This document shows positions 13,271-40,591 of a DNA stretch of 64,000 nucleotides, piece by piece; position 1 is the first letter of the stretch, and every line of letters starts with the position of its first letter. Position numbers and translations under genes: made by a program. The DNA is from a virus, in the IMG/VR virus record IMGVR_UViG_3300025584_000449, positions 64,001-128,000 of that record; one strand, given 5' to 3'. The notes below the pieces were generated by a model, which made no database searches, had not been told where the DNA came from, and saw nothing but the letters and a program-made list of their open reading frames with translations.

Positions 13271-13286
13271 AGCTTAAAAAGATAAC

Positions 13287-13352: not shown

Positions 13353-15347
13353 ATGAACAATCTATTCTTAGATAGGAAAGAGCTTGAAAAGAAAGCGTTT
13401 CGCTATTTAACAGAAGACCACACTAATTGGGTAAAAGAGATAATTACGGAGTTGTTAACAAACTTCCCTGAGTTTACAGACGTGGATTTAGGTGTTGAGT
13501 GGATACGTAAAGACTTCAATAAAGGAACAGCAGTAGGATTCGTCAATATACAAGGAATGGCTCAGGTCCCTGTTATAGTAGATAGCTATAATATGTATGA
13601 TCTTGATGTCATTATAGTGAATAACTCAACGTATCCGTTAACACACGATACAGTGTTAAAGTTATTTAAGAATCCGGCAGCATTTAAGACTTCCGGTAAA
13701 GGCACATCTTTAATTAAAGACCTTGATCTATTTGTACGTCCTGTTGTAGAGCCAGCCACAGCTGGTGAATCTAGCGTTAAGACTGCTAAATATGACTCTG
13801 TAATAGAGAAAATGGGTGGGTCGGTGCTAGGTAATGACTTACGAGACATTCTTTCGTCTATAGAGCCATATCTCAACGAATATATGGACAATGGACATGG
13901 CGATATCATTGAGAAGCTTAGCAGTATTGAGCCTATTGAGGAAACTGACTTTGCTAAAGACTTAATGCGTACTATGCCTATTGACAGACAGTACAAATAT
14001 GAAGATAGTAATGGTAACACTATATTAAAACAGGCTAATAGTAGGGTGAACTACACATATATGATAGAAGTTGACAGTCAAGAGGCTGATCTTAATGAGG
14101 ATATGACTGCAGAATCATTAAAAATAGCGGCCTCTTATTCTAGTCCAGACCTATATACATACTATATTGATAAAAGAGGCAAAGCTCAAAAAGCCTATAC
14201 TACTGTATTCAATAATGTAAATAAAAAGCGTGACATAAAGGTAATAGATAGAGAAACTTTCAAGACTATGAGAGTATCTTCTGGTATTAGAAATCCTAAG
14301 CGTAAAGCTGAATATTTAAAACGTAGAAATAAGTCAACTGAGAAAATTGCTAGTGTTAATGAATCTCCTAAAGTAATGAAACTAGTAAATGATCCTGGGT
14401 CTCTGTTCTTATATAAGAACGGAAGCTATTTATGCAGCGATGACACAAATTCTCTAGATATGGAGAAAGTTGCTAGCCTTGGATCACAGCAATGGACACC
14501 AGAAGGCACAATTCCTTCTATGGGCGATACAGGCTGTTGGGTATTTAGCGATAATAGTGCTTCTAAGCCGTTTGAGGTAGTAGGATTACATAAGGTTGCT
14601 GGTGTAGGCAACTTTGAGGTTGTAGGCTGGGATGGAATGAATAGACATACGTATTATCCTCTGCAAGGCATTAAGGATAATGACCTTATTGAGCATGATA
14701 AGTATAATGATTCGTCCTATGTACCAGGAAATACGAAATTCGTTAAATTGGCTACTAGAATTGAGAATAATGATCTGTCATTGATAAGAGAGCATATCAG
14801 TAATAAGGTAAGCAAGGATAGTGCCGGATTATACTCATTCCATGGAGCGGAATTTAGCAAATATAGCTCTAAAACTAGAGACTTGACCTTTGATGAGGCT
14901 ATGTGGACTGCGATACATTGTAATGTACCCAATGATCAATTAGAATCATTGGAAAGCTTAGAGAAAAGCGCTTCATTGGCGTTAGATGCTAAAGCTCCTA
15001 TGTCACTTCTTGATCTCGAGTATAAGATCCATTCGAAATATAAGGATCTGTACTCTGACATGAAAAATGACATCATGAAGGTGGCTGCTATGGGTGCGGT
15101 TCCTAGTATTGGGTCACCTAAGACCATAGATGCCGTATTAGGGCTTAGTCTACTCAATAAGAACAACATTACGAGTTACTTAGAGCTGATTCCTGCCTAT
15201 GAAGAGGTATTACAGTACTTAGCTAAGCTACTACTGGCTGTGCGTATGGGACTTAAGACGTTAGATGAGTATCAGGTAAAAGAGGCAATGTTGAACCTGA
15301 CTAAGGTGGTTGTAGGGCTAAAGAGCTTAGGTGCTGTAATGAAATAG
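13353..15347 (+). CDS. large putative head/internal protein with K-x-A motifs
   Basis: 664 aa; KTAK, KIAA, KIAS, KVAS, KVAG, KLAT, KSAS, KVAA; own sigma70-type promoter. Confidence 0.55.
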   Translation: MNNLFLDRKELEKKAFRYLTEDHTNWVKEIITELLTNFPEFTDVDLGVEWIRKDFNKGTAVGFVNIQGMAQVPVIVDSYNMYDLDVIIVNNSTYPLTHDTVLKLFKNPAAFKTSGKGTSLIKDLDLFVRPVVEPATAGESSVKTAKYDSVIEKMGGSVLGNDLRDILSSIEPYLNEYMDNGHGDIIEKLSSIEPIEETDFAKDLMRTMPIDRQYKYEDSNGNTILKQANSRVNYTYMIEVDSQEADLNEDMTAESLKIAASYSSPDLYTYYIDKRGKAQKAYTTVFNNVNKKRDIKVIDRETFKTMRVSSGIRNPKRKAEYLKRRNKSTEKIASVNESPKVMKLVNDPGSLFLYKNGSYLCSDDTNSLDMEKVASLGSQQWTPEGTIPSMGDTGCWVFSDNSASKPFEVVGLHKVAGVGNFEVVGWDGMNRHTYYPLQGIKDNDLIEHDKYNDSSYVPGNTKFVKLATRIENNDLSLIREHISNKVSKDSAGLYSFHGAEFSKYSSKTRDLTFDEAMWTAIHCNVPNDQLESLESLEKSASLALDAKAPMSLLDLEYKIHSKYKDLYSDMKNDIMKVAAMGAVPSIGSPKTIDAVLGLSLLNKNNITSYLELIPAYEEVLQYLAKLLLAVRMGLKTLDEYQVKEAMLNLTKVVVGLKSLGAVMK

Positions 15348-15452
15348 CTTACCTGGTAGCACGCCATTAAGGCAAAATAGTGAAATGGGTGTATATGCAA
15401 ATATATGCCCTTTTTTCTTGTGTACCGTACAAGGAATATAGAGGCCACAAGT

Positions 15453-15462
15453 GGTATAAGAA
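15453..15462 (+). promoter_or_regulatory. GGTATAAGAA promoter-like motif
   Basis: exact 10-mer upstream of small ORFs ending at terminator 15804. Confidence 0.6.
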
Positions 15463-15803
15463 CATTGGTAGTGTATAGTGTAAACAAATGGTTACACAGG
15501 AGCAACAAATACCAACATTGAGAGGTTATTGTGGAGCTACTAGGAGAATTCATCATGTTTGTCATAGTAGGCATGATCTCATATCGATACGGTTACGGCT
15601 CAGGCTATAGAGCCGGCCACGATAGAGGCGTAAGGGGCTTTAGAACATGAACATACAAACCGCGATTAGCATTGTGACATATTGTCACCCTAGCATATGT
15701 CTCAATAATGTACCAATTGAGACAATAATACACGCTGCTGAGCACATCCTGAACACACAACAAGGCCCAAGGCCATACATAGCGCTCACTGGCGAGCGTT
15801 ATT

Positions 15804-15825
15804 GAGAGGGCATTGCCCTCTCTTT
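15804..15825 (+). terminator. intrinsic terminator
   Basis: GAGAGGGCA/GCCCTCTC hairpin + TTT, then AGCCTAAAAAAA. Confidence 0.65.
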
Positions 15826-15994
15826 AGCCTAAAAAAATATTAAATGACCATCAAGGTTTTAGGTTCCATACACCTACCCCGCCTAAGAAGCTTACCTGAT
15901 GCTGCGCGTGCGGATAGTTATTTTTTATTTTATAAATTTTTATGTTAATCTAAATGGGCTTAACACAGAGTAGTAACTGCTTAAATAATACATG

Positions 15995-25416: not shown

Positions 25417-28362
25417 ATGATATATTCTATAACTCTCCAAAAAAAGCAAAAATTCGGCAGACCTAAAAAAGTCACGCTTAGAGAATATTCTAAGCGTAGA
25501 CTTGAGGCTAATGTTATGCAAAAGTTAAAGGAGGGTTATACAAAAACTGCATCTGAGAAAAAAGATATAGTTGAAACTGCTGGAGCATCCGCAGCTACTG
25601 CGGGTGTTTTACAAACTACTAATGTAATAAAAAAGAAACGTGCTATAAAGAAAGCTCCTAAGACTATTGAAGAGGCACGAAGAGTTTTAGAAAAAGCGAT
25701 GGCTGGTGCTAGTAAAGGTGATGTAATATTTACTAGCAACCCTAAAGGGTTAACTCCTGATTATAGACCATTACATCCTATAATGATTCTTGATAAGAGA
25801 AAGAAAAAATTAGGGGATGTGTATCCCTCTACTGTTAATGGTGTTAATAGTAATGTAATGTCTGGAGTTAAGTCCCCACATCACATTGAGTCAACAAAGT
25901 CCAAATTAGATTTTTATTTAACTGGGGCTGGTTATGGTAAGGCCGAGTATAAGCCAGAGCATTTTTTACAGTTTAAGAGTATAAAAAAAGGAAATCCAGA
26001 AGCAGCAAAAAGGTTTGTTGAACAAGCTAGATCAGGAGAATACTCTTACGGCATTGGTAGTCCAAAAAATCCTAAAAAGATAACATGCGTAGATGCAATT
26101 TGTAAAGCTATTCATGGTAAAAAATCAATTAAACACTCGACTCCACGAGCTCTTTCTAAATCATTAAAAACTGTTTGGAAAAATCCTGCTGCTTATAAAG
26201 CACTTCCCGTAGTTGCTCCAGCTGTAGCCGTTGGTGGAACAGTAGCTGCTTATAAAGCTTTTAAAGCTAGAAATAAAAAAGTGTCTACTCAAAATAAAGC
26301 AGTTATTGCGGCAGGTGCTATAGGCACTGTGCCAGCAGTACATGCTGGAACCTCCCTGGTAAAAGGTTTTTCAAGAACGGGATTAAAACAGTTAATGAAA
26401 ATAGCTGCTAAGAAAAAGGAAGATAATAATAAAGCTAAAGCTTCTGTTTTAGCAGGAACTGCGGTTGCGGCTCCTACTGCTGTTGCAGCAGATCATTTAA
26501 CTAGAAAACGTAATCGTGTAAAGATTGATCCTAAAGCTAAAGATGCTATTATATTTACTGAAGGTGGAAAATATAACACTGGCGGGTCTGGACATGCTGC
26601 AGCGTCAGAAGCCATTAGACAGGCCTATGAAAAGAAACATCCCGGTGCAAAAGCTCACGTAATGAACTATGGAGATTATGCTAAAGCTAAAAGATTGGCA
26701 AACCCTGCTAAAACTAATTATGAAGCTATGGCTGGAATTTCTACACAAAATCCTTTTAAGAAATTTTTAGGACGGTTAGGGTTTGGTAGTACTTATCTAC
26801 CTTTCTATGCCTCAGTAAGTAAAAGAAAATTATCAAAAGATATTAAAGCAATTAATCCTGGAAGAGTAATAGTTACTCATCCTGGAGCTGCTCCACATTT
26901 ACAAAGTTTAGGCATTAGTCCTGAAGTAGTAGTAACAGATTACGGTGTGGGTAATAAAGGCTCTAAAGATTTTTGGGAAACAGCAAAGGGTCTTGGAAAG
27001 AAAGATCCAAAAAATGTTGGTGGAGTGTTTGCTCCTTCTAAATCTGGAACTGATATCTTCAAAGATGTAAAGGATGCTGGAAGACCTGTTACACAAATTA
27101 GCTCTATTCCAATTGAAAATCGTCACATAAAGCCTGTAAAGGTTGATAAAAAATTAGTAAGAAAAATAAAACCAACAGCTTCACCAGATTTTGATGCTTA
27201 TACGCCAGATAGAAAAAAGAGTGGAAAAATTGTAGTTCCAAAGGGTAAAAAATTAGTTGTATTAGCTGGTGGTGGTACAGGACAAGACGTAGAAGCTATG
27301 GCAGAAATTCTGTTAAAAGAAAAACGAAAAGGTATTCATTACGTAGGTGTTGCTGGCGGAAATAAAAAAGTATATAGAAGATTACAACAACTACAGCAAC
27401 AGCATGGTGCAGATAAGATATCTATAACTGGTTTTGCAAAGAATCTTGATAAACTAAACGAAGCTGCGCATGTAACAGTCTCTCGCCCTCACGGGTTAGG
27501 CCCTACTGAATTAGGCGCTTCCGGTAAAGTCAATATTAATGTTGTGCGTGGGAGAAAGTATGACAAGAGAAAAAAGAGTTTAAAATTTGTAGATAGCTAT
27601 AGCCCTCATATGAGTGAGAATGCTTTACATTATAGGGATACAGCTGGATCTCCTATTGCCACCCTTAGAAGAGGCAAAGGTAGAAAAGGATTAGATTATA
27701 ATAGTTTGAATGATCAACTAAATTATGCTTTGAGTGATCATAAAAATTTAAGTGCAAAAGCGAAATCTTGGCAAGAAACCTTCCAAGAAGGTGGCGGTGC
27801 AGCTGAAGTTGCAGCGGCCAAGTCTAGTACTTTCTCAAGAAAACTTAAACTTAGTAAATCTAAAGTCGGAATAGCTGTTGGCGTTAGTACGGCATCACTT
27901 TTAGGTGCTAAACACTTTCTTACTAAAGATAAAAAGAAGCAAGTAAAGGTAGCTGAAATGAAAAAGAAAAAGAAGGAAACTGGAACACTTGTGTCTTCTA
28001 CAGTTAAAATGACTGCAGCAGGTGCGACAGCTGGTGCTGGAAAATATATAACAGATTTGATTAGACTTGGTCAGCCAGGCGATACTGCTGGTCAAGGGTT
28101 TAGCGAACGAGCTATTTTAAAAGGGGTAAGCGAACAAGCTATAAAAGATTCTCTTCGTATGCGCTCAAAGGGTGGTATTAGAGATAGTTTTTCTGTTGCG
28201 CTACACGGAGAAGAAATAGCTAAAAAAGTAAGAGAAACAGCTAATGCTAGAATCTTCAGCAAAGGAGTATTAAAATCTATGAAAGCACCAGCCGTAGCTG
28301 CTGGGTTAGCTGGATTAGGATTTGGAGTCCATCGTGAGTTTAAAAGGAAGCAAAAGAAATGA
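25417..28362 (+). CDS. polyprotein: permuted papain-like amidase + GT28/UgtP-like glycosyltransferase + TM-anchored modules
   Basis: GDVIFT..H..C (His 25774, Cys 26086); GSGHAAASEAI, VIVTHP, VVTDY, LAGGGTG, GF..L...VSRP.G...E; modules separated by KTAS, KIAA, KVAE. Confidence 0.7.
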   Translation: MIYSITLQKKQKFGRPKKVTLREYSKRRLEANVMQKLKEGYTKTASEKKDIVETAGASAATAGVLQTTNVIKKKRAIKKAPKTIEEARRVLEKAMAGASKGDVIFTSNPKGLTPDYRPLHPIMILDKRKKKLGDVYPSTVNGVNSNVMSGVKSPHHIESTKSKLDFYLTGAGYGKAEYKPEHFLQFKSIKKGNPEAAKRFVEQARSGEYSYGIGSPKNPKKITCVDAICKAIHGKKSIKHSTPRALSKSLKTVWKNPAAYKALPVVAPAVAVGGTVAAYKAFKARNKKVSTQNKAVIAAGAIGTVPAVHAGTSLVKGFSRTGLKQLMKIAAKKKEDNNKAKASVLAGTAVAAPTAVAADHLTRKRNRVKIDPKAKDAIIFTEGGKYNTGGSGHAAASEAIRQAYEKKHPGAKAHVMNYGDYAKAKRLANPAKTNYEAMAGISTQNPFKKFLGRLGFGSTYLPFYASVSKRKLSKDIKAINPGRVIVTHPGAAPHLQSLGISPEVVVTDYGVGNKGSKDFWETAKGLGKKDPKNVGGVFAPSKSGTDIFKDVKDAGRPVTQISSIPIENRHIKPVKVDKKLVRKIKPTASPDFDAYTPDRKKSGKIVVPKGKKLVVLAGGGTGQDVEAMAEILLKEKRKGIHYVGVAGGNKKVYRRLQQLQQQHGADKISITGFAKNLDKLNEAAHVTVSRPHGLGPTELGASGKVNINVVRGRKYDKRKKSLKFVDSYSPHMSENALHYRDTAGSPIATLRRGKGRKGLDYNSLNDQLNYALSDHKNLSAKAKSWQETFQEGGGAAEVAAAKSSTFSRKLKLSKSKVGIAVGVSTASLLGAKHFLTKDKKKQVKVAEMKKKKKETGTLVSSTVKMTAAGATAGAGKYITDLIRLGQPGDTAGQGFSERAILKGVSEQAIKDSLRMRSKGGIRDSFSVALHGEEIAKKVRETANARIFSKGVLKSMKAPAVAAGLAGLGFGVHREFKRKQKK

Positions 28363-28669
28363 GCAAGACTAAGATCGTCGTGAATAAAACTAAAAATCGT
28401 GAAAAACTATTAAGACAAAGAAAAGAAGAAAAACGACAAGCTAAATACAAGTCATATGAAGATTATGACCAAGATACTTATTTACAAGATGACGAAGACT
28501 AAACCGAGGAAATAACCAATGAGATCATTTAAAATTGACGAATATAATTCTATTCCATTTAAGGATGAGGTAGAAACGTTACGTGAGAATGGTGAACATA
28601 AAGAGGCTTTTGAACTAATGGATACATTAGCTCAGCAAGCTATTACAACAGAAGATAAAGAAAAAACTG

Positions 28670-29329
28670 ATGAGTAAGAATTATCTTATTCAAGCTTTAC
28701 TATCTGCTGGGGCTATAGGCTATGGAGTTCACGGTATTAAGCAGACTGATAAAGTTAATAAGGTACTTGAAGATCAAGTAAAAAAAGAAATAAAAATTAA
28801 TCAAAGATTACCAAAAGTTCCCAAAGACATAAAATTATTAAAAACTAAAAAAGATTTACATTCATATATTGACCTTTCAGAAAAAACTGATAAAAAACGA
28901 AAACTTATGAAACAAATTATAGGGCCGATAACAAAAAAGCCAAATGCTTTTGCGTTTGTACCAGACAATGAATCCGCCGGGTTAGCTGTTTATATCCCAG
29001 ATAATATGAAGGCTTCTAAAGTAGTCGCCCACGAATTGGGACATATAGAAGATTTTAAGAAACATAATGTAAAAGGGACTATAGGATATAACAAATTAAT
29101 AAATACTAAAAAAAGTCTTTTTAAAGGTATAATTAGCCCTAAAAAAACTTCCGTATACAGCTCTGAAGTTAGGGCTTGGGATAACGCAAAAATAAAAAAA
29201 GATGACCCATTAAGAGTGGCGGCTTTAAAAACATATGAAGAAAATTTAAAGATTTATAGAAGAACTATTCCTATTTTATTAGGAGTTGGTAATTTATATA
29301 GACTTGGATTTAAAAAAAGTAAATGGTAA
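28670..29329 (+). CDS. HExxH zinc metallopeptidase-like, membrane-anchored
   Basis: VVAHELGH and downstream EVRAW; hydrophobic termini; C-terminal LGFKK. Confidence 0.65.
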   Translation: MSKNYLIQALLSAGAIGYGVHGIKQTDKVNKVLEDQVKKEIKINQRLPKVPKDIKLLKTKKDLHSYIDLSEKTDKKRKLMKQIIGPITKKPNAFAFVPDNESAGLAVYIPDNMKASKVVAHELGHIEDFKKHNVKGTIGYNKLINTKKSLFKGIISPKKTSVYSSEVRAWDNAKIKKDDPLRVAALKTYEENLKIYRRTIPILLGVGNLYRLGFKKSKW

Positions 29330-29353
29330 ATAGTAGGAGGTAGAAGAGTAATA

Positions 29354-29581
29354 ATGGAATATTTGTTGATGGAGCACAATGGTGACCAAGACCATTTAGA
29401 AATAGTAGAAACTATAGAAGAATTTGTATTAGACAAATTTGGACATACAAAAGTTGAAGAAGCTATTTCTACAACAGATAAAGTAATTATATATAATAGA
29501 GAATTAGACCCTCTAGTTACTTTAAATAAAATACCTAAAGACGCAGACTTAAATTTATTGTTTAGCTTAACTGGAGAGTAA
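29354..29581 (+). CDS. hypothetical protein
   Basis: GGAGG upstream. Confidence 0.5.
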   Translation: MEYLLMEHNGDQDHLEIVETIEEFVLDKFGHTKVEEAISTTDKVIIYNRELDPLVTLNKIPKDADLNLLFSLTGE

Positions 29582-29583
29582 TT

Positions 29584-30018
29584 ATGCCGGAAGAAAAGAT
29601 TATGCGGAACTCTAATACAGTTCCTCGTGGGACAGGTGCCACTAAAACTGTAGGGATAATGTTGTCTATTGTATTATCGTTTTTAACGATATGGAATTTT
29701 ATGGGAGATAGAATTGATGATATTATTACAGCACAGAATAATTATCATATAGCTCATGAAAAAGCACACACACAATTATATAATGAGATGGATGACCTAT
29801 TACATGAACTAGGTGATATTAAAATTAATATGGAAGATAGAAAAGTGCAAAAATATAAATTAGAAAATGTTGAACATGTTAATGCACAAGAAGCTTCTGA
29901 GAGTAGAGAAGAAAGACATTTATTAGAGTCACAAGATAGAGATCATAGCACAGCAATTACTAGACTAGAAGAACAAGTAAAAACTATTCAGAATAGAATA
30001 GAAATACTTCACCCCTAA
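29584..30018 (+). CDS. membrane-anchored coiled-coil protein
   Basis: single N-terminal TM then heptads; possibly lysis-related, unproven. Confidence 0.5.
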   Translation: MPEEKIMRNSNTVPRGTGATKTVGIMLSIVLSFLTIWNFMGDRIDDIITAQNNYHIAHEKAHTQLYNEMDDLLHELGDIKINMEDRKVQKYKLENVEHVNAQEASESREERHLLESQDRDHSTAITRLEEQVKTIQNRIEILHP

Positions 30019-30156
30019 AGTATTCGGGAGACTAACCATAATGGAATTTATCATACTAGGATTGATAGGTGTGTCATATGTTTGTTTGTTTGAGCCAACC
30101 TTACTAACAAATCACCTTGCACACTTTTTAAAATTAAAAGCAAAGGACGAGGAATA

Positions 30157-30456
30157 ATGCAAATTGTTTTAAATGACTTAGATCCGACAAAAGATGAAAA
30201 GTTATTAGCATTTTTTGAAGGGCAAGAATCTGCTTTGGTTAAGATGGCATCCATCTTAACGTATAATACAGATGCAGATTTTGAGGGGCTGTTTGAAAAG
30301 ATAGCTGAAACCTACGAGCCTAGTTCTTTTAAAGAGCTACAAGAAAAAGTCGAAGAACTATTTCCAGAGAATGTTAAATTAGCTAATAAGTTAACTACTT
30401 GGGGAGATAAGTTATGTTTAGACAGAGATAGACTAAAGAAAGTGTTTAATCTCTAA
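30157..30456 (+). CDS. hypothetical protein
   Basis: GAGG RBS. Confidence 0.55.
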   Translation: MQIVLNDLDPTKDEKLLAFFEGQESALVKMASILTYNTDADFEGLFEKIAETYEPSSFKELQEKVEELFPENVKLANKLTTWGDKLCLDRDRLKKVFNL

Positions 30457-30646
30457 TGAATATCAGACCTTTACAACAATCACAAAAAATAACTTGCTCT
30501 GCATGTAAATCTGGAATTGCAGTAAGAACAAGACTAGTAGGACCAGACGGTAAAGGTAGATTTGTATACAAATGTACAAATCCAAAATGCAAAGTTTCTA
30601 GGAGATAATGATGTTAAAAAAGTTAGGGAAAACTTAAAGATTAATT

Positions 30647-31135
30647 ATGATTTTTTGTAAGAATGCAAAATTAAGAGGAAGAGCATTAAGAGAGATTAGA
30701 AAACTAAAAGCTTTAGCAAAAGGTGATTTGACTACTCATCTTACTAATAGAGAAAGTTTAAATTCTATAATTTCTTCTAAAAAATTATTATCTTCAGCAG
30801 ATATTCATAGATTACCAGCAGAACATTCTTTAAGAAAAACCGAATGGGCTAGAATTTTTGGTCTTCATGGAAATTTAAGTGGCACTTATGGGGCTGAAAC
30901 TGGTAGAAATTATTCAGTTATATTTAAAAGAAAAAATACTATTAATGGTCCAACAAAATTTAAAACTGTAACCATGAAGTCTCCTCAAAAATTAAAAAAA
31001 ATTATAATAGGAACTCCAAAGTCTGAATTAAATGTTTTAAGAAAGAAATATAGGGATGTTGTTTTTGTAGATAATTCAGACTTACGTAAATTAGGATTTA
31101 AAAAAGAAGGGTTTGAATATGGCTATCGCTATTAG
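30647..31135 (+). CDS. basic protein, possible ART (DarT-like) fold
   Basis: THLTNRESLNSIISSKKLLS resembles the HxTxxxNLxSIL...LLS start of DarT-like ARTs; KNA leader, KLGFKK tail. Confidence 0.4.
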   Translation: MIFCKNAKLRGRALREIRKLKALAKGDLTTHLTNRESLNSIISSKKLLSSADIHRLPAEHSLRKTEWARIFGLHGNLSGTYGAETGRNYSVIFKRKNTINGPTKFKTVTMKSPQKLKKIIIGTPKSELNVLRKKYRDVVFVDNSDLRKLGFKKEGFEYGYRY

Positions 31136-32012
31136 TAAAAAACTTCCACATTATAATTATATTGTTGCATTATTTGCAACTAAAAAATATCCTAAATCCG
31201 AGATTAAGCAGATGTTGGAAGATCGAGGTCTCCCTACTTCTAATTATTATCTTGATAAGATAGTGGCGGAGCTATTATCTCAACATCCAGATTATTTCCA
31301 AGATAATAAAAAGACTATTAACGATTTAGAGCCGGAATGGATTGCTACATTGAAGATAGAAAAAATGTTAGGATACTTAGAAAATATAATAGTGCCTGGA
31401 AACTCAATAGATGGAATAGAAGGAGCATTTAAAATTTTAGATGATCCTTTAATGTTTAGGTTAGTAAGTTCTCTATGTATCGTCGGAATCACTCAAGAAG
31501 ACATTGAATTAATGGTAAACGGAAAATTTAACCTTGAGTACTCCTATGAAGACATAGATGAGTTCACACAATATTTCTTTAATGTGCACAACTGGACTCG
31601 TGTCCAAAAACAAAATTATATAAAAGATCGTTCGCCTAAAGAATATGTACCTACGTTTAAGGTTGCACTAAAAGGTGATAAAGACTACTTGATTTGGAAA
31701 TTAGGAGCTCAGCCCGATAGAACTCATGAGTCTATGATCAATGAAATGGTAACTGACTCGTTTTATAACTTCAAAGATAAAACTAGGTCAGACCCTGATT
31801 TAGCTCAGAAGTGGGGAACTCTTGCTTTAAAGTTATCTGATAAGGCTGATAAGATTAGAAAAGAATCTATATCTAATGAAGATTTCTTTAATATGGTTGA
31901 ATTCGATGATGGATCAGAGCAAGAAGAGTTAGTTACATTAGACCAATTAAATGATATAGAAGAAGCAGAGTCAGATAAAATAGTTCCTTTAAAAAATAAG
32001 AAACAAGGATAG
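31113..32012 (+). CDS. hypothetical protein, candidate terminase small subunit
   Basis: position two genes upstream of terL; acidic C-terminus; positional inference only. Confidence 0.4.
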   Translation: MNMAIAISKKLPHYNYIVALFATKKYPKSEIKQMLEDRGLPTSNYYLDKIVAELLSQHPDYFQDNKKTINDLEPEWIATLKIEKMLGYLENIIVPGNSIDGIEGAFKILDDPLMFRLVSSLCIVGITQEDIELMVNGKFNLEYSYEDIDEFTQYFFNVHNWTRVQKQNYIKDRSPKEYVPTFKVALKGDKDYLIWKLGAQPDRTHESMINEMVTDSFYNFKDKTRSDPDLAQKWGTLALKLSDKADKIRKESISNEDFFNMVEFDDGSEQEELVTLDQLNDIEEAESDKIVPLKNKKQG

Positions 32013-32013
32013 T

Positions 32014-32727
32014 ATGAGTCTTTTAGATAAAGTACAGACTACGCTAGATCCAAGTATTTGGCTTAAGAATTATAAGTTGAAACCTAAGGTTAGAAAACAA
32101 CTTATTAGAGAACTTAAAAGAGTAATTCCAAAGTCTACAAAGATAATGGACATTTTTCTACTTGGGTCTATCACTGGCTATAAGTATACTGTAAGATCAG
32201 ACATGGATGTCAACGTTATGGTTGATGTTAGCCCTGCTGATGCAAAAGTTTTACATGTAATGGCGCGTAACTTTGTTAATGGAAAATTAGTTACTGGGAC
32301 CAGACATCCAATTAATTATTATATTCTTCCTTATAGGAAGAAGTCTGATTTCAAAGATGCTAAGTTTGGAGTCTATGATATATTAGGTGATAAATGGCTA
32401 ATTCACCCTAGACTAGACCCAGAGAATATAAGAGATCCTAAAGTAGAATTCAAGAGTGAGCTAGAGCTAGCTAACTTATATGAAAAGATGTTAAAAGAAG
32501 ATGTTGAGAACGAGGATGTCGAGGATATTCTCGATATAGAACGAAAAGTACACGTAGGTCGAGAAATGGCATATGATGTAGGTTTTGGCATTCCTAGACG
32601 ATCTTTGCAGAACATAATATATAAGAAGTTGGAACATGGACCATACGGTAAAGTATTACAACATGCTCAAAAGATAAGATGGATTAGACGCAAGAAGCGC
32701 AAAGCACGGATGGAAATGGATAAGTAA
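32014..32727 (+). CDS. Pol-beta superfamily nucleotidyltransferase
   Basis: hGS...SDMD motif: LLGSITGYKYTVRSDMDVNV; C-terminal QNIIYKKL. Confidence 0.75.
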   Translation: MSLLDKVQTTLDPSIWLKNYKLKPKVRKQLIRELKRVIPKSTKIMDIFLLGSITGYKYTVRSDMDVNVMVDVSPADAKVLHVMARNFVNGKLVTGTRHPINYYILPYRKKSDFKDAKFGVYDILGDKWLIHPRLDPENIRDPKVEFKSELELANLYEKMLKEDVENEDVEDILDIERKVHVGREMAYDVGFGIPRRSLQNIIYKKLEHGPYGKVLQHAQKIRWIRRKKRKARMEMDK

Positions 32728-34284
32728 ATGGCTAATACAAAATCTCAGCGCAAAGTAAAGATGACGAAGTCTCAGTTTGCTGAGAAATTTTTATATTTAA
32801 ATGGTAGACAATTATCTTTGTCTGATTACCCTCATTTGAGGGCAATCTATGATTCAGATGCAAAAGACACTGTATTACAATTTAGCAGACAAACAGCAAA
32901 GAGTACTACTCTTGCTAATCTAAAGATTGCTAACTGTGCGATGCGTCCATATTTTAAATCTCTTTACATTGCTCCTACAGTTGATCAGTGTAAAGTATTT
33001 TCACATGATAGAGTTGCACCTGTTATAGAATCGTCTCCATTAATTAAACAACACTACATAAATTCTTCATTAGTACAGAACGTACATATGAAGCAATTTC
33101 TAAATGGATCTAAATTATATTTAAGATATGCCCTGGTGAATGCTGATAGGATTCGTGGATATTCTGCAGATATGAATCTATTCGATGAGGCACAGGATCT
33201 TGCAGCTGATATTATACCAGTTGTTAGAGAGACTATGTCTAGATCTATGTATAAAAAGACTATGTACGCAGGCACTCCCAAGCGCACGCGCGGGACTCTG
33301 GCAGATATATGGGAGCGTTCTACTAAGAACGAGTTCATGCCCCGCTGTACTGGCTGTGGAAAATGGAACTTATTAGATGAGAAGAATATAGGTAATCTTG
33401 GGGTTATCTGTAAATACTGTGGTAAACTAATGGACATCAAATCAGGTCGTTGGGTACAGACTGGTGAAGAGGATGCTACGGTTGAGGGCTGGAGAGTTTG
33501 TTTACTTCATTTCTCTAAAGCTCCTTGGGTAGATTGGCAAAAAGATGTAATAGAGAAAATGAAGATTACATCTAAGGCTATTTTCTATAATGAAACATTA
33601 GCTCTATCCTTCGATGATGGTGTAGCTCCAGTTACTAGATCACAAGTTAAAAAATGCTGCACTGGTCCAAGAATATCTCATGGAGACCCCGATCTTACAA
33701 AAGATAGTATTAATGCCTTTCCTAGAATATTGGGAATTGACTATGGTCCAGTAAACTCAGACTCATCAAATACTGTGATATCAATAGTACAAAAACGTGG
33801 ACCAAAGTTTCATGTATTATATGCTAAAAAATTTTTAGGCAAAGAAGCCGACTATGCGTTTATACATGATGAGGTACCAAGAATAATGAATAAATGGGGA
33901 GCCGAGTTTATAGCCTCTGACTATGGAATGGGAGAGGCACCTAACTCAGAGTTTAGAAGACGTTTAGGATATGAGAAAGTAATCGCTTTCCAGCACATGC
34001 CTAATCAGAAAAAGGTAATGGAGTTCAACTCCAAAATGCCTGCGTATACCCTTGGTAGAAACCAAGTTATGAATATGTTCTTCCAAAGAATTAAGAGTGG
34101 GGCTTATATTTTCCCCGAAGGGCAAGAGTTTGATACATTTGTTGATGATATGTTAAATGTACAAAATGAATACAATGAAGAAATGAACACAATGAAGTAT
34201 GTTAATATTGGTCCAGACGACTTTGTTCATGCAACCATATTTGCGTCCCTTTCTGCAGAATTATACAGTAACGCGCAACTTTAA
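32728..34284 (+). CDS. terL: terminase large subunit (lambda gpA-like ATPase with CxxC pair)
   Basis: Walker A-like SRQTAKST, Walker B DEAQD, CTGC/CKYC, nuclease LGIDYG, terminal DD. Confidence 0.85.
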   Translation: MANTKSQRKVKMTKSQFAEKFLYLNGRQLSLSDYPHLRAIYDSDAKDTVLQFSRQTAKSTTLANLKIANCAMRPYFKSLYIAPTVDQCKVFSHDRVAPVIESSPLIKQHYINSSLVQNVHMKQFLNGSKLYLRYALVNADRIRGYSADMNLFDEAQDLAADIIPVVRETMSRSMYKKTMYAGTPKRTRGTLADIWERSTKNEFMPRCTGCGKWNLLDEKNIGNLGVICKYCGKLMDIKSGRWVQTGEEDATVEGWRVCLLHFSKAPWVDWQKDVIEKMKITSKAIFYNETLALSFDDGVAPVTRSQVKKCCTGPRISHGDPDLTKDSINAFPRILGIDYGPVNSDSSNTVISIVQKRGPKFHVLYAKKFLGKEADYAFIHDEVPRIMNKWGAEFIASDYGMGEAPNSEFRRRLGYEKVIAFQHMPNQKKVMEFNSKMPAYTLGRNQVMNMFFQRIKSGAYIFPEGQEFDTFVDDMLNVQNEYNEEMNTMKYVNIGPDDFVHATIFASLSAELYSNAQL

Positions 34285-34305
34285 ACTAATAATGTAAAAA
34301 ACTAC

Positions 34306-34334
34306 TTGACAAGTAGTTAGAGAGAGGCTATATT
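34306..34334 (+). promoter_or_regulatory. sigma70-type promoter
   Basis: TTGACA-17-TATATT. Confidence 0.7.
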
Positions 34335-34338
34335 TATT

Positions 34339-35412
34339 ATGATGATCACTTCCTTCGATTTAGATTCCTTTGGAAAACAAGCTGCAGAAAATTACGTATC
34401 TAGCGATGTATCGTTAAACGATACTATTACAAAAATCGCAGAAGACAACGGATTGAGTGTGCAGCAAATAACACGTGTGGTGGAGGCTGCAAACGTGGAA
34501 ACCTACCTGTCTCTATTAAAAACTGCAAAAGACAAGTACGTCGAATTTGACGTAGCTACTGCAAATGATGTGCACACTTCAGTAACAAAGGTTGCTGAAG
34601 TTTCTAATTGTCATGACTATGATGAACCTCCGTGCATCAATGAAGACGTCGCTCTTTTCTACATAGAAAAGACTGCAGAAATTCCAATAGACAGAGCTAA
34701 GATAGAAAAACAAGCTAGCGAACTAAGTGGAAAATTCGACTTCTTAGTTAACGCTTTACATGACAACGAGTTAGAAGCAGATACATTACTTAGAGATCTA
34801 AAAGTAATGACCAAGCAAGCTTTGTTACAAAATGTCGCTTTTAATGATTTAGGTTTAATCTACAAAGAAGCTATGCCTATTCTAGGCGAAGCTGTTCTTT
34901 CAGAAATTAAAAATACAATTACAGAAAATTCTCCTCATCTAGATCTTGAAAAAGAAGCTTCTATGAAGTTTGTAAATGAGGAAAGTGACTTCTTCCTAGC
35001 CGCACAGAACTTTGAAAAAGTGGCTGAAAAAAGATTAATGATCGCAGATGCTATCTCTCACTTTGAGGATAAGTACGAAGAGTTAAAAGAATTTGATGTT
35101 ATACTTCCTAAGTTAAATAAAACTGCTGGAAGTTTAAGAGGTCTTCTAGCAAAAATAAAAGGCATTCCTGCGTCATTAGGTGAAAAGATGCGTAAAGCTA
35201 AAAAGCTTAAAGCATCTAAAGAATACGTAAAAGAGCATGAGAAAAAACTAACCTGGAAACCCGAAATTCCTGTTAAAAAAACTTTGAAGAGAGTTGGAAT
35301 TGCTGGCATGGTCGGTGGCGGTTATGCTGTTGGTAAAGGAAAAGGTAAAGAAGACCAAGGCGATATCTTACGTACACAATTATTTAATCAACAAAGATTA
35401 AGGAAATATTAA
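34339..35412 (+). CDS. head/inner-body protein with about ten K-x-A motifs
   Basis: KQA, KIA, KTA, KVA, KEA repeats; C-terminal TM-like Gly-rich helix; head operon. Confidence 0.6.
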   Translation: MMITSFDLDSFGKQAAENYVSSDVSLNDTITKIAEDNGLSVQQITRVVEAANVETYLSLLKTAKDKYVEFDVATANDVHTSVTKVAEVSNCHDYDEPPCINEDVALFYIEKTAEIPIDRAKIEKQASELSGKFDFLVNALHDNELEADTLLRDLKVMTKQALLQNVAFNDLGLIYKEAMPILGEAVLSEIKNTITENSPHLDLEKEASMKFVNEESDFFLAAQNFEKVAEKRLMIADAISHFEDKYEELKEFDVILPKLNKTAGSLRGLLAKIKGIPASLGEKMRKAKKLKASKEYVKEHEKKLTWKPEIPVKKTLKRVGIAGMVGGGYAVGKGKGKEDQGDILRTQLFNQQRLRKY

Positions 35413-35987
35413 TGGATCTTTTAAAAGAAAAATTATTAGAAAAATGTGCTGGATCTAAATGGGAATCTATAAAAAAGATTACCACACCTTTTATAACCGG
35501 CTTAGCTATGGCTAGTGCGATGGCTGTTATCGGTGGTGGAATTGCAGTAACCCAGCAATGGATTAATAAACAGCAAAAGGATCCAGCGTTTAAAAAAATG
35601 CTTGAGATACACCCTGAATTACAAGAAGAAGATAAAGCCGATGTTATGAAGTATTTTGATTCTTTATATCATTTTGCCCCATCAATGGCAAAAGATCCAT
35701 TAGCTGCTGGAGCCTACATTAGACAAACTCTAAGAATGGCGACACATGGTGGGCCCACTATTGACACTATTAAGACCGTTACTGATATTGAAAGTGGAAC
35801 AGGCGCCTCTAAACCAAATGCACTGCAGTCTTTATATATGGATCAGCTAAACACAGCTATGAAGGTACCAATGGACTCTGGATCATCTGCTCCTGCGTCT
35901 CCCGCAGTGTCTATAGTAGATAAAACAGAACTACAGACGGCATTTAATAACGCATTTGAGAATCACATGTTTTCTGGGAATCCTTAA
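35412..35987 (+). CDS. membrane-anchored head-assembly protein
   Basis: EKCAG leader then TM helix; head operon. Confidence 0.55.
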   Translation: MDLLKEKLLEKCAGSKWESIKKITTPFITGLAMASAMAVIGGGIAVTQQWINKQQKDPAFKKMLEIHPELQEEDKADVMKYFDSLYHFAPSMAKDPLAAGAYIRQTLRMATHGGPTIDTIKTVTDIESGTGASKPNALQSLYMDQLNTAMKVPMDSGSSAPASPAVSIVDKTELQTAFNNAFENHMFSGNP

Positions 35988-37720
35988 TGTATAAAATCAT
36001 AGAATATTGTTATGGCGATCATGACACTGAACCTTTTACTTTAGTAAGTTCTAGTAACATGCATAAGACAGCTTCTTATGCCTCCGAGATATTAGAATAT
36101 ATTAAATTAATAGAAAAGAAGATTGATAAAACTTATGCGTTAGTTAACGCATTAAGTGCTGGCGAATTCTATGGTTCCAATAGAAATGGTGACTACTTTC
36201 CTGAAAACGCTTTACAGGCGTATCATAAAACGTTTGAAGCAATGGGACATGTATACAAACACCATGTAAATAAAGATCCTCGTAAATCTTTTGGGAAAGT
36301 AGTGTTTTCTCACTATAATCCTAAGATGCACAGGGTAGAGTTAATCATCGAGCTAGACAATAGCCGTGCTTCTGATATTATAGAAAAAGCAAATAAGTCT
36401 ATCTCTGATGTTAAAGTATCTATGGGATGTAAGGTCCCATACGATGTTTGTTCTATTTGCGGAAATAAAGCAAAGAGAACAAGAGACTATTGTGAGCACT
36501 TAACAACTAAAATGGGCAAGATACTGGACGATGGACGAAGAGTCTATGCAGTAAACACTATGCCTAAATTTTTTGATTTAAGTGTTGTTACAATACCTGC
36601 TGATAGAACAGCAGGGTTCTTAGCTAAGGTTGCATCATCTGTCTCAATTGAGACAGAAGTAATACCTTCTGCAGTATTAGCAGAGCAGTTATTAAAAGAA
36701 GGTGACCTGGAGTCACAAGCTGAGATTAAAAAAGAAATAGTTGCAAAGATTGATGGGTTAAGTGAAGATCCAAAAAAATTAGTTTTAAAATCACAAAAAG
36801 CAATGCCAAAAGAATTGTTAGAAAAGTTGTCAGAGTATCCGATAAATGAGGTATACTCTACTTTAATGGGACTATGTATTTTCCCTAAAAAGGAAGACTT
36901 TATGAAGATAGCTTTATATTCTAATGGGCAAGATAAATTAGCAGAAGACCTTGGAAATACTATAGATTTTAACTTTGGTATTGAAGATCCTATTATGGCT
37001 TCTGATGTTTCATTAGATTTTTTTAATGAAAAAATAGCAGAACTATTAGAATCCGAAGTTCCTAACTTATCTTTAGCAAAACCTTATGTGATAGCACGTG
37101 CTTTAGAGACTCCTTCTATTAATAAAGAAGCTTCTTTAAAATTAGAAGATGTTTTAGAACAGCATAAAGTTGCAGAAATTAGTTATAACCCACAAGCAGC
37201 AGCAACACCAAGTAAGATCAAAAATATATTATTTGATCATACCCCTGATCCAACACTAACTCCTCACAAGAACCCTCTAGTTCCAATGGCTGTTTTAGGT
37301 GGGCTATATGCAGGATATGCGAAGATGTTTCATAAAGCATTTTCTCATGGAGGGGTAACAGAGTTAGTTGCAAAATACCCGTGGATAGTTCCACTTCTTG
37401 TAGGAGCCGGAACCGTGGGATCTTTAAAAGTACAAGATTCACTGTTTAAATCCGCTGGTGCTTTGATTCCTGCTATAATTTTTGCTGGTATACCCAGTAC
37501 TTATTTATATGCAGGAATACAAGAAGCAAAAGTAAGAAGAGGCGAACCTATATCAAAAACCCAGAATTTTGTACGAAAGCACCCACTTTTGAGTACATTG
37601 TTAACAACAGGAGCGATAAAAGGTACGCAACTTATTATGAAAAAAGCCAGCTTAATTTCCAGAATGGATCAGGATACGGTAACAAAACTGTATGATGAAT
37701 TAATTAAGGAGAAGAAATAA
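35987..37720 (+). CDS. prohead maturation protease (Caudoviricetes serine protease-like) with C-terminal TM region
   Basis: His (KHHVNKD), Ser (VSMG), CSICG..CEH insert, DLSVVTIPAD..A; precedes scaffolds and MCP. Confidence 0.7.
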   Translation: MYKIIEYCYGDHDTEPFTLVSSSNMHKTASYASEILEYIKLIEKKIDKTYALVNALSAGEFYGSNRNGDYFPENALQAYHKTFEAMGHVYKHHVNKDPRKSFGKVVFSHYNPKMHRVELIIELDNSRASDIIEKANKSISDVKVSMGCKVPYDVCSICGNKAKRTRDYCEHLTTKMGKILDDGRRVYAVNTMPKFFDLSVVTIPADRTAGFLAKVASSVSIETEVIPSAVLAEQLLKEGDLESQAEIKKEIVAKIDGLSEDPKKLVLKSQKAMPKELLEKLSEYPINEVYSTLMGLCIFPKKEDFMKIALYSNGQDKLAEDLGNTIDFNFGIEDPIMASDVSLDFFNEKIAELLESEVPNLSLAKPYVIARALETPSINKEASLKLEDVLEQHKVAEISYNPQAAATPSKIKNILFDHTPDPTLTPHKNPLVPMAVLGGLYAGYAKMFHKAFSHGGVTELVAKYPWIVPLLVGAGTVGSLKVQDSLFKSAGALIPAIIFAGIPSTYLYAGIQEAKVRRGEPISKTQNFVRKHPLLSTLLTTGAIKGTQLIMKKASLISRMDQDTVTKLYDELIKEKK

Positions 37721-38359
37721 ATGTCAACACATGGAAAAACCTTAGACGATATTCTAGCCGAGCTAGAGACCGAAAGTCAAGAGAAAACTGCTGAAGAGAA
37801 GTTAGCAGAGGGTCTTTCCGAGGATACGGTTGAAGAAGAAGTAATTGAGGAGTCAACTGAAGAAGACACTAAAGAGACACCAGAAGATGATGAAGAGAAG
37901 ACGGCAGAAGAGATTGATAAAGTAGCAGAAGAGATGGACGTTCAAGGACGCTCCTTCGCTCGTGCCTTTGTTGATGAGTTACAGAAAATAGCAGTTGGTA
38001 CTGGCCCGTATACTGGTAACAGTGCGGATACCCCAGCTTCAGCCAAGTCTGTAAATCACTTGTCAGTCGGAGAACTTCCTGAAGCAGGTAAAGTCGACGC
38101 AGTAATTGCAAAGTTAAAAGAACTGACTGCCGCAACAGAAGCTAGTGTACCTTCTATTGAAATTGATACTAATTCTCAACCCGCACCTCGTAAAGCTCCT
38201 GATGAAACAGCAGGAACTATTGCCGCAGATTCTGCCCTAGCAGTAACTCACCAAGCCGCTCTTCCGAGCTCAGCTGGTGGTGTAGATATGGGTAAGCAAG
38301 CTGCTGATGAAATAGTAAACACTATTTACGATACATTCTTCACTGAAGGAGAGGAATAA
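37721..38359 (+). CDS. acidic scaffolding-like protein
   Basis: Glu-rich; 6 K-x-A; C-terminal EIVNTIYDTFF. Confidence 0.6.
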   Translation: MSTHGKTLDDILAELETESQEKTAEEKLAEGLSEDTVEEEVIEESTEEDTKETPEDDEEKTAEEIDKVAEEMDVQGRSFARAFVDELQKIAVGTGPYTGNSADTPASAKSVNHLSVGELPEAGKVDAVIAKLKELTAATEASVPSIEIDTNSQPAPRKAPDETAGTIAADSALAVTHQAALPSSAGGVDMGKQAADEIVNTIYDTFFTEGEE

Positions 38360-38364
38360 AATTT

Positions 38365-38883
38365 ATGAGTAATATAATTGACGAAAGAGTAGAAATTATT
38401 TCTCAATATGCCGCTACTGCTGATGATCTATTAGCACAAGAATATGGTGAAGATTATGAGAAAGAAGATGTTGTTAAATTAGCCACATATATGTTAAATC
38501 ATGACATCGAAGCTGAAGAAGCTGAGGAAGTTGAAGAAACTACCAAAGAAGCAAGCTATGATATGGAGATTGAAAGACGCGAAGCTATCAGTGAGTATGT
38601 AAAGACTGCTTCTGCTCTCTTAACAGAAGAGCATGGCGAAGATTTTACTAATGATGATGTTGTTAAACTAGCTCAATACATGATCGAGTATGATGTCGAA
38701 GTTGAAGAAGAGGAAGCCGCTAAAGTAGCTTCTTACGAAGAAGCTGGACAGATCATGGCTAATGCTTTCTTAGCAGAGTTAAGCAAAGAAGCCGAAGAAG
38801 TTGAAGAGACCGAATCAGATAAAACAGCTGCCTATGAAATCGTAGAAAATTTATACGATAGCTTCTTTAATGAGGAAGAATAA
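38365..38883 (+). CDS. acidic scaffolding-like protein with two internal repeats
   Basis: 7 of 8 Lys are in K-x-A; C-terminal EIVENLYDSFF. Confidence 0.6.
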   Translation: MSNIIDERVEIISQYAATADDLLAQEYGEDYEKEDVVKLATYMLNHDIEAEEAEEVEETTKEASYDMEIERREAISEYVKTASALLTEEHGEDFTNDDVVKLAQYMIEYDVEVEEEEAAKVASYEEAGQIMANAFLAELSKEAEEVEETESDKTAAYEIVENLYDSFFNEEE

Positions 38884-38904
38884 CTTTTTTAATTCGGAGT
38901 AAAT

Positions 38905-39216
38905 ATGACCACGGATGATAAATTAAAATTAGCTGCCGATACTATTCGTGCCATACGTGATGAATTAGAGGAGTTGCAGATGGTTAAGTCTGCACAGGAA
39001 ACAGCTATAGAGCTGTATGAAAATGGCAGATTTCCTGCAGAACGAGCTATTCAGTTTATGCAGGAATACTCCGAGGGAAGTTCAGAGGAGTTAGAAATCG
39101 TTAAGAAGGCTATGGAGTTACAAAGCCAAGAGAGTTTTAGTTTTGGAACTCTTAGTGACAGAATTCAAGACGATGGGTCTCTGGACAATTTTACTCGGTG
39201 GTTGATTGAAGATTAA
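38905..39216 (+). CDS. scaffold-associated protein
   Basis: acidic; KLAA, KSAQ. Confidence 0.5.
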   Translation: MTTDDKLKLAADTIRAIRDELEELQMVKSAQETAIELYENGRFPAERAIQFMQEYSEGSSEELEIVKKAMELQSQESFSFGTLSDRIQDDGSLDNFTRWLIED

Positions 39217-39682: not shown

Positions 39683-40591
39683 ATGAGTAATATTTCAGCT
39701 AGCACTATTAATGAGCTGTTTATTCAGAAGCTAAATTCTCCTGATGGTATTGAGAAAGCAGCGTCTGAAGGTTCAGCGTTTATTCGCCAAAAGCTAAGAG
39801 AAGTTAGCTTTGCGCGTAAGATTATCCAGCCCGAGTATGTAACAAAGGCTGACTTGCAGAGATCAGTTAATCACGACGGTTTAGTGCGCATTGTTGATAT
39901 TGAGCCCGACTCAAAAGCAATGACAGTAAACTTCCGTGGTCAGCCTGATACGAACTACATCATGGGTGAGCGTTATGAGATTCCGTTCTATACAATCTCT
40001 AGTGATGATTTCCAGAAGACTGAGGAAGAGCTTCTAGCTTATGAAATGCCTCTAACTGAAATCATCGAGCGTAACTCTGTGAAAGATATTCAGAAAATTG
40101 AAGATACCTCGTTCTTGGCACAGGTTGAAGTAGCTATTACTGCTAGTTCACTGTCTGTCAGTGGTACTCTTACAAGTGGAGTAATTTCTAAGGATTCATT
40201 CCGTCAATTGTTTAACTTACTAGATGGTAACAACTTAAGAGCTGAGACCCTTCTAATGAGTACTGAGACCTTTAACCGTTTATTCCTATATGATGCAACA
40301 TCAGTTGGTGACGCGGTTGGTTCTGAGATTACAGTTAACGGATATACTTATGCTAGCTTGTTCGGTCGTAAGTTAATTGTTTCTAACAAAACAGACTTAC
40401 TACACAGTGGTACACAAGAGTATGTATATGTATTCGCCGCTCAGGAGTTCTTAGGTAACTTCTGTATCTTAAATGATACGAAGTTCTGGATTGAGAAGAA
40501 AAAGAATATTATCACATTCGCTGCTTATGAGGCAGTTGGAATGGGTATTGGTAATATTAATGGTTGCGGTAAGATGACCTTGTATCCGTAA
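39683..40591 (+). CDS. major capsid protein (HK97-fold expected)
   Basis: 302 aa at end of head operon, strong RBS, strong terminator downstream, EKAA near N-terminus. Confidence 0.75.
   Translation: MSNISASTINELFIQKLNSPDGIEKAASEGSAFIRQKLREVSFARKIIQPEYVTKADLQRSVNHDGLVRIVDIEPDSKAMTVNFRGQPDTNYIMGERYEIPFYTISSDDFQKTEEELLAYEMPLTEIIERNSVKDIQKIEDTSFLAQVEVAITASSLSVSGTLTSGVISKDSFRQLFNLLDGNNLRAETLLMSTETFNRLFLYDATSVGDAVGSEITVNGYTYASLFGRKLIVSNKTDLLHSGTQEYVYVFAAQEFLGNFCILNDTKFWIEKKKNIITFAAYEAVGMGIGNINGCGKMTLYP

Follow-up and report, generated by a model that had tools for sequence, protein, structure and literature searches.

The window analysed here is a stretch of 64,000 nucleotides, corresponding to positions 64,001 to 128,000 of the IMG/VR record IMGVR_UViG_3300025584_000449, a virus record of 179,902 bases from marine metagenomes of four studies. 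Its plus strand contains, at positions 25417-28362, an open reading frame (ORF) whose stop-free translation gives a basic chain of 981 residues and about 108 kDa, with a composition of 14.7% Lys, 11.5% Ala and 9.5% Gly. The product consists of a leader of 43 residues followed by three modules, each of which is also found separately elsewhere. The leader (residues 1-43; 25417..25545) ends with G-Y-T-K, followed by T-A-S, and is matched by the leader of the relative P0008. Module 1 (residues 44-327; 25546..26397) is composed of an Ala/Gly helix with a Lys run, a core at about 80-255 and two closing Ala/Gly/Val helices; in module 2 (residues 328-843; 26398..27945) a Lys run and an Ala/Gly helix precede a GT-B core, which is followed by another Ala/Gly helix and another Lys run; module 3 (residues 844-981; 27946..28362) shows a Lys run, an Ala/Gly helix, about 75 helical residues, a further Ala/Gly helix and a Lys-rich end.

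Three K-x-A sequences mark the borders of these parts, at the positions that a first-pass annotation of this DNA had given for them: K-T-A-S at residue 43 (site 1; 25543..25554), K-I-A-A at residue 328 (site 2; 26398..26409) and K-V-A-E at residue 844 (site 3; 27946..27957). The extended form of site 1 is Y-T-K-T-A-S, which fits the hydrophobic-x-K-x-A-[SEA] pattern of the head genes of the same genome; site 2, L-M-K-I-A-A, lies at the border between modules 1 and 2, and site 3, Q-V-K-V-A-E, is where the alignment with P0008 starts. The exact 981-residue protein is recorded from 9 contigs, and contigs of two other studies span all three joints with zero differences or indels, one of them reaching just 20 bases beyond joint 1. 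Since contigs from other studies cross the joints unchanged, the three-module fusion is not an assembly artefact. Matches of about 35 bases between X5 contigs and the DNA around the K-T-A and K-V-A codons, which have unrelated flanks and lie in low-complexity sequence, were left out of this count.

Among 50,697 phage records, tblastn detected no match to the ORF; the complete ORF also gave nothing useful against Pfam and PHROG, and a scan of metagenome contigs for related DNA found no relative. An exhaustive HMMER search of 1.84 billion representative proteins yielded 33 proteins, which fall in three groups, each matching one part of the ORF; the joints of the most informative of these relatives were read from protein sequences only. 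The homologues of module 1 align from query residues 43-46 to about 311-321 (P0009, 331 residues; P0011, 344 residues), those of module 2 from about 328-339 to 838-847 (P0002, P0003, P0004, P0006 and P0010, of 490-556 residues), and the homologue of module 3, P0008 (171 residues), aligns over 844-981 with 60% identity. On one JGI contig the gene of P0009 (2663-3658), which codes for module 1 only, is directly followed by that of P0002 (3659-5281; 540 residues), which codes for module 2, and their border corresponds to site 2 of the ORF; a terminase lies downstream of the pair, as in the genome studied here, and a second contig has the same layout. The notion of a polyprotein made of modules, put forward by the first-pass annotation, is thus borne out by homologues that begin and end at the module borders and by modules that are adjacent separate genes in a relative; the same annotation had held that homologues with domain borders ignoring the K-x-A sites would speak against it, and the borders found do respect the sites.

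The modules have also been exchanged at joints of this kind, as had been anticipated. In P0008 the leader, about 85% identical to that of the ORF, is fused straight to module 3 with K-V-A at the joint, while P0005, P0007 and P0035 combine an unrelated N-terminal module with module 2 via the same kind of joint, and other C-terminal parts are appended in P0007 and P0012. The architecture and the coincidence of the K-x-A sites with the module borders are solid. Two other readings were considered and rejected. The joints are not former start codons: stand-alone module 2 proteins begin with M-P-K, M-N-D or M-S-Q, never with M-K-x-A, and the Shine-Dalgarno-like sequences ahead of Met34, Met327 and Met848 are weak. 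A search of the genome for paralogues of the leader found none, and this absence rules out the leader as a shared targeting sequence in the sense known from T4. The module genes are accessory, as neither the ORF nor the module 2 profile has a match in four near-complete relatives of the genome, whose capsid proteins are 51-72% identical.

Among the three modules, module 2 is the one with the clearest predicted identity. Its GT-B core covers residues 367-817 approximately (26515-27867). The AF2 model, obtained with 25 aligned sequences, has pLDDT values above 90 throughout the core, and all the top Foldseek matches are GT-B enzymes, the first being Arabidopsis MGD1 (4wyi/4x1t; E 6.8e-10, TM by target 0.63-0.68). 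At the sequence level, module 2 matches UgtP in the PDB (9wde, a processive diacylglycerol glucosyltransferase) with an E of 2.3e-4 and the NCBIfam model for diglucosyl-diacylglycerol synthase with an E of 2.3e-6, a score far under the equivalog cut-off of that model. On PF04101 it reaches 13.6 bits, below the cut-off of 22 bits, and PF06925 gives no hit; the relatives P0005, P0007 and P0012 pass the PF04101 cut-off and P0012 also passes that of PF06925 (26.6 vs 25). HMMER links the ORF to canonical proteins with MGDG_synth and GT28 domains at an E of 1e-4.

The motif series of the UgtP/MGDG-synthase type that the first-pass annotation had read in this module is real, and its key residues are invariant in comparison with bona fide proteins of the family: G390, G392, H393, T507, D508, G647, N649, G693, E698 and N735 are shared with seven bacterial members. 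Like UgtP and MGD1, the module combines a GT-B fold with a GxGH loop, which contains a candidate catalytic His, a TD pair, a PxG..TE nucleotide-sugar motif and a terminal Asn-Ala. It differs from them in an identity of about 20%, in Pfam scores below the cut-offs, in two large insertions, in a highly diverged N-terminal acceptor domain and in the His-Met that, in the whole phage family, replaces the Gln-Glu usual before Asn-Ala near the sugar site; moreover, it is flanked by Ala/Gly helices and Lys runs and forms part of a polyprotein of phage origin. The alignment including bacterial sequences is too diverse for a pattern search. The assignment of module 2 as a divergent GT-B enzyme of the GT28 MGDG-synthase/UgtP type is solid on these sequence and fold matches, and a glycerolipid of the membrane is its most likely predicted substrate.

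Module 1 carries the sequence GDVIF at residues 101-105, His120 (25774-25776) and Cys225 (26089-26091). The five known members of this group share G-D-[IV], the pair His120-Pro and a Cys-bearing helix; His120 is invariant in the five sequences, and Cys225 is kept in all three of those that reach that point. Cys225 opens helix 224-233 of the model, and C225 and C230, both in this helix, are the sole cysteines of the entire 981-residue protein. GD-hydrophobic-F, His and Cys-x-[DE] follow one another in the order of E. coli YaeF and at similar distances, in agreement with the permuted papain-like layout previously proposed, with weak evidence from the fold. The same elements, that is a GD-hydrophobic-F strand, a His and a Cys at a helix start with similar spacing, are found in YaeF/YiiX (Peptidase_C92), in PLAAT/LRAT proteins and in the picornavirus 2A H-box/NC proteins; hydrophobic helices following the core are a further feature in common with PLAAT/LRAT, and Aichivirus 2A is likewise a module of a viral polyprotein. 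An ESM-Atlas model matches the YaeF/YiiX C92 and LRAT clusters with TM values of 0.44-0.52. VIA comparison of the AF2 core gives PLAAT4 (Z 5.0), the Bacillus cereus cysteine peptidase 3kw0 (4.5), YiiX (3.8) and Aichivirus 2A (3.4), values that taken alone are in the noise range.

Several results weigh against this identification. The AF2 model of module 1 is poor, with a mean pLDDT of 47 and values of about 70-84 in the core (70-206); the module has no hit in Pfam at E up to 10, including PF05708 and PF04970, and no match in a PDB profile search; hhalign against YaeF gives a probability of 4% and aligns the GD-hydrophobic-F motif only. Thus, differently from established permuted NlpC/P60 enzymes, the module has no significant sequence match and its fold scores (Z 3.4-5.0) remain within noise; furthermore, the second His of PLAAT is a Tyr here. 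A six-frame search of the genome with PF05708 was empty, and the module 1 group was not enlarged by a profile search of 5.8 billion proteins. Because several weak lines agree, it is likely, with a chance that we set clearly above even, that module 1 is a permuted NlpC/P60 thiol enzyme similar to YaeF, YiiX and PLAAT. The more precise label of amidase, used in the first-pass annotation, is not established and represents one option only: the nearest folds include the PLAAT/LRAT phospholipid acyl-hydrolases and acyltransferases, and an enzyme of this kind would fit a lipid glycosyltransferase as partner.

For module 3 the AF2 confidence is low, and an ESM-Atlas search returned nothing but unspecific helical or membrane folds, all with TM < 0.5. 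A feature common to all the modules, in the ORF and in its relatives alike, is that they are bounded by Ala/Gly/Val-rich helices next to Lys runs; in the ORF product these segments are at residues 51-69, 258-276, 296-314, 340-358, 817-835, 856-874 and 951-969, and small-xxx-small patterns are common in them. Their best windows of 19 residues have Kyte-Doolittle values of 1.0-1.4 and summed Hessa values of +6 to +10 (simple scales, calculated with our own script), well under transmembrane thresholds; the description of the modules as membrane-anchored could not be sustained on this basis. The helices may be membrane-active after delivery, or may serve packing in the head.

What distinguishes K-x-A in the ORF is not that it is frequent but that it is rare outside the joints. 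The ORF contains 7 such sequences against about 16.5 expected, with a P of about 0.004 even with local shuffles of 10 residues, and when 648 spaced residue pairs are ranked by their depletion in 11 family members, K-x-A comes first (32 vs 83, z -5.6) and K-x-G third. When the ORF product itself (P0001) is removed from the family, 25 are found against 58.5 +/- 6.5 in 10-residue local shuffles, none of 2000 being as low. No depletion is seen in bacterial GT28 relatives (13 vs 12.3) or in the whole genome (268 vs 258). Copies with the extended form hydrophobic-x-K-x-A are placed at leaders and joints: at residues 43 and 328 of P0001, 265 and 274 of P0005, 41 of P0006, 715 of P0007, 43 of P0008, 534 and 544 of P0012, 18 of P0020, and 4 and 154 of P0035. 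The exceptions are residues 77 and 199 of P0024, which are inside module 1 and have Pro after the Ala, and residue 752 of P0007, which is unplaced; the joint at 231 of P0007 carries a K-x-G variant. The stand-alone module 2 proteins P0002, P0003, P0004 and P0010 (490-556 residues) have zero matches to the extended form.

As a separate observation, small basic proteins opening with M-x-x-K-L-G-F are encoded at 18125 and 19873 of the window and at 17287 and 13835 of the genome, the C-termini of the products of 28670-29329 and 30647-31135 end with ..L-G-F-K-K.., and L-G-F-[KT]-K occurs near the start of the module 1 relatives P0009 and P0020; this recurring short signal is an instance of K-x-G. 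L-G-F was rejected as a motif in its own right, as the tripeptide is not enriched overall (30 vs 22) and the K-L-G-F openings are K-x-G instances.

The opposite behaviour of K-x-A is seen in the head-assembly genes, a block on the plus strand at 34339..39216 that contains 37 copies against 13.6 expected, an enrichment of about 2.7-fold (P 1.3e-7), with 200 copies against 221 expected in the rest of the genome; the consensus of the sites in these genes is [LIMF]-x-K-x-A-[SEA]. One of them (35987-37720) codes for a protein of 577 residues, whose residues 65-205 match PHROG 18299, annotated as head maturation protease, with an E of 1.9e-9; this domain has no match in PDB, Pfam or NCBIfam. Two acidic scaffold-like proteins follow on the same strand (37721-38359 and 38365-38883), and the motif crowds both these proteins and the region after the protease domain. 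The major capsid protein (39683..40591, plus strand; PHROG 2522 major head protein, E 1.4e-9) has a single K-x-A, at residue 25 in the context G-I-E-K-A-A-S, which is kept in 28 of the 29 related capsid genes printed. The enrichment recurs in the capsid-adjacent genes of the relatives L013 and L051 and in one gene of the more distant L001, and their tail genes contain almost no K-x-A. Two further proteins strongly enriched in K-x-A were noticed, encoded at 13353-15347 of the window (11 vs 3.5 expected) and at 14903-15994 of the genome, outside the window (13 vs 2.8); they may be additional head-internal proteins cut many times.

A promoter-like sequence, CTTGACA-N17-TATATT, is found at 24396..24425 on the plus strand, ahead of a two-gene unit formed by 24430-25416 and by the ORF. 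The general form CTTGACA-N17-TATAWT has 7 exact sites in the window, all on the plus strand, where 0.11 are expected by chance: those at 13286, 18000 and 18792 belong to basic 'cargo-like' genes, that at 24396 to the operon of the ORF, that at 34305 to the head operon, and those at 40668 and 48056 to tail genes. On the replication side of the window, which is on the minus strand, no copy was found. Judged from this distribution, it is the predicted promoter class of the structural half of the genome, and the ORF is probably co-regulated with the structural genes, since its promoter type is common to head and tail operons.

The best explanation of these data is that the ORF codes for a head cargo polyprotein, composed of a leader, a putative thiol hydrolase or acyltransferase, a GT28 glycosyltransferase and a small helical protein, connected by Lys-rich linkers that each contain one copy of the hydrophobic-x-K-x-A motif. 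The chain would be synthesised alongside the head proteins and taken up in the prohead, where the prohead protease would cut it at the three sites, probably after the Lys, by analogy with the hydrophobic-x-Glu rule of T4; the fragments would then exit from the capsid together with the DNA and exert their activity at the inner membrane of the host in an early phase of infection. This whole sequence of events, from entry into the prohead through cutting at the three sites to the arrival of lipid-active enzymes at the host membrane, has, in our judgement, a little better than an even chance of being correct. The link with the head protease has indirect support, given by the enrichment of K-x-A in head genes, its avoidance off the joints in the family and the shared promoter type. 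A motif that is crowded in proteins which have to be cleared from the head, single near the capsid N-terminus and avoided in the cargo off leaders and joints resembles the prohead-protease motifs of T4 and of phiKZ-like phages (for SPN3US, PMC10052503).

A number of observations weigh on the other side. The context of the motif is similar to an amphipathic helix, with hydrophobic residues at -2 and at +5/+6, so that it could be a binding and not a cleavage motif, and the conservation of the capsid N-terminus extends beyond the site in both directions, so that conservation of the site alone is no proof of cleavage. Site 3 has Gln and not a hydrophobic residue at -2, a less common choice among the head-gene sites (4 of 47). 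In relatives, a K-x-A leader is missing from the stand-alone module 2 proteins, and therefore any head targeting cannot rely on such a leader alone; the four near-complete relatives without any module indicate, in turn, that the protein is not needed for building the head. The promoter resembles a host sigma-70 consensus, and the Ala/Gly/Val helices are too weakly hydrophobic for ordinary membrane insertion. Finally, the phage is known from marine metagenomes alone.

A more specific form of the cargo proposal, which we regard as tentative and somewhat doubtful, is that the head carries cleavable lipid-modifying enzymes, namely a PLAAT/YiiX-like acyl hydrolase or transferase and a diacylglycerol glycosyltransferase, both with weakly hydrophobic Gly/Ala-zipper helices, which would be ejected with the DNA and would rewrite the lipids of the host inner membrane at the site of entry. 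Possible purposes are the sealing or stabilising of the entry channel, the exclusion of later phages, or the formation of a membrane compartment round the incoming DNA, and the K-x-A joints would represent a plug-and-play rule able to turn any module into head cargo.

Among the alternatives, the first is that the protein is not packaged, being an intracellular membrane-associated multi-enzyme that remodels host envelope lipids, as one chain or cut only incidentally; for example, it could replace phospholipid with glycolipid in phosphate-poor sea water. The marine habitat, the sigma-70-like promoter and the accessory nature of the gene agree with this proposal, as do the use of cytoplasmic UDP-sugars by GT28 lipid glycosyltransferases, established for UgtP and MGD1, and the fact that in relatives modules 1 and 2 come from two ordinary genes, neither of them with a K-x-A leader. 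However, it leaves unexplained the strong avoidance of K-x-A off leaders and joints while the same motif crowds the head-assembly genes, and it does not account for a promoter type which the head and tail operons also have and of which no copy was found on the replication side (minus strand); moreover, a PLAAT/YiiX-like hydrolase would release no phosphate from phospholipid. We consider this explanation unlikely.

A second alternative, which appears quite unlikely, accepts packaging and sees K-x-A as a docking motif for the scaffold or the capsid interior, with the 108-kDa chain staying whole. The helix-like context with its hydrophobic positions and the conservation of the capsid N-terminus on both sides of the site would be in line with docking, and the many repeats in the scaffold-like proteins are what a binding repeat could produce. 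Conversely, docking gives no reason for the avoidance of the motif inside folded modules, nor for its location exactly between modules that are separate proteins in relatives, and the motif is rich in the scaffold-like proteins and after the protease domain, where other prohead proteases cut repeatedly (PMC10052503). The third alternative, concerning only the acceptor of module 2, which would be not a glycerolipid but a polyprenol-linked wall precursor as for MurG, a protein or modified phage DNA, can draw on the presence of MurG in GT28 and a weak MurG match of P0007, on the His-Met replacement, the diverged acceptor domain and the two insertions, and on the very basic nature of the protein, but is improbable, since diacylglycerol glycosyltransferases consistently give the best matches in both sequence and fold, P0012 passes the cut-off for the MGDG_synth N-terminal domain and, for DNA, no pyrimidine hydroxymethylase of the thymidylate-synthase type was found in the 89%-complete genome.

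Some other features of the genome deserve a mention. The gene that shares the predicted operon with the ORF (24430..25416, plus strand) codes for a basic protein of 328 residues, with 16% Lys and 17% Ala, and its stop abuts the ATG of the ORF. It contains at 24648-25144 a tandem repeat of about 243 nucleotides (81 residues), in 2.1 copies with 95% matching, whose units open with M-K-K-K-A-G; the repeat number varies in nature, as contigs from other marine runs lack one unit (joint 24647>24891) or contain additional sequence (25130>24648). Downstream of the ORF, the variant contig of one run skips 729 bases (28623-29353), with loss of the basic 219-residue gene 28670-29329, a cassette-like presence/absence. 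The large terminase is at 32728-34284; the nearest named phages, Salmonella phage Arash and three Vibrio phages, have a terminase identity of about 29% only. A protein of 761 residues with the N-terminal domain of major tropism determinants (Mtd_N; E 2.8e-8), a likely receptor-binding fibre, is encoded at 41699-43984, and the tail sheath at 50102-51739. Outside the window, the genome codes for a 910-residue protein with an AEP-TOTE primase domain (139729-142464; E 2e-28) and for a single protein of 2023 residues that contains both Rpb2 (beta) and Rpb1 (beta') domains, thus a fused multisubunit RNA polymerase (29362-35433). The latter was considered as a second polyprotein and discarded: its 15 K-x-A are just the number expected (15.0), and those near residues 909-991 are within conserved beta sequence.

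In T4 and phiKZ, the prohead protease processes head proteins, including enzymes that are ejected into the host, at a short motif. The proposed system is similar to that of T4, with its internal proteins and Alt, and to those of the inner-body or ejection proteins of phiKZ and of the Salmonella phage SPN3US, in having a short motif common to scaffold, capsid and cargo and leaders that end in the motif, the cargo of these phages being enzymes that travel in the head and reach the host with the DNA. In SPN3US, too, the prohead protease cuts head proteins, among which ejected enzymes, at a short motif (PMC10052503). In the ORF system, differently from the T4/phiKZ type, Lys is found in place of Glu, with an Ala two residues later, and the predicted cargo consists of several enzymes in one chain, with sites also inside it, where exchangeable modules meet. 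A resemblance also exists with viral polyproteins, in which one reading frame provides several independently folding products with one protease motif per joint; in this case, however, the virus is a dsDNA phage with a tail, close relatives encode the modules as separate genes, and the putative protease is that of capsid maturation, which acts inside the prohead. Head cargo processed by a maturation protease is already known; the Lys-based motif, the exchangeable multi-enzyme chain and the lipid-directed payload would be the new elements, and no report of a payload combining a lipid glycosyltransferase with an NlpC/P60-like protein was found in the literature searched.

If the head cargo proposal is true, the effectors that phages deliver with the virion would extend from modifiers of nucleic acids and proteins to the chemistry of membrane lipids, and a divergent, compact GT28 family would be added to the known glycolipid synthases. 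In the evolution of cargo genes, modules would be fused, split and exchanged at the sites of the protease. Furthermore, a Lys-based maturation motif, enriched in scaffold proteins and avoided in cargo off leaders and joints, would make the head cargo of uncultured phages predictable from sequence alone.

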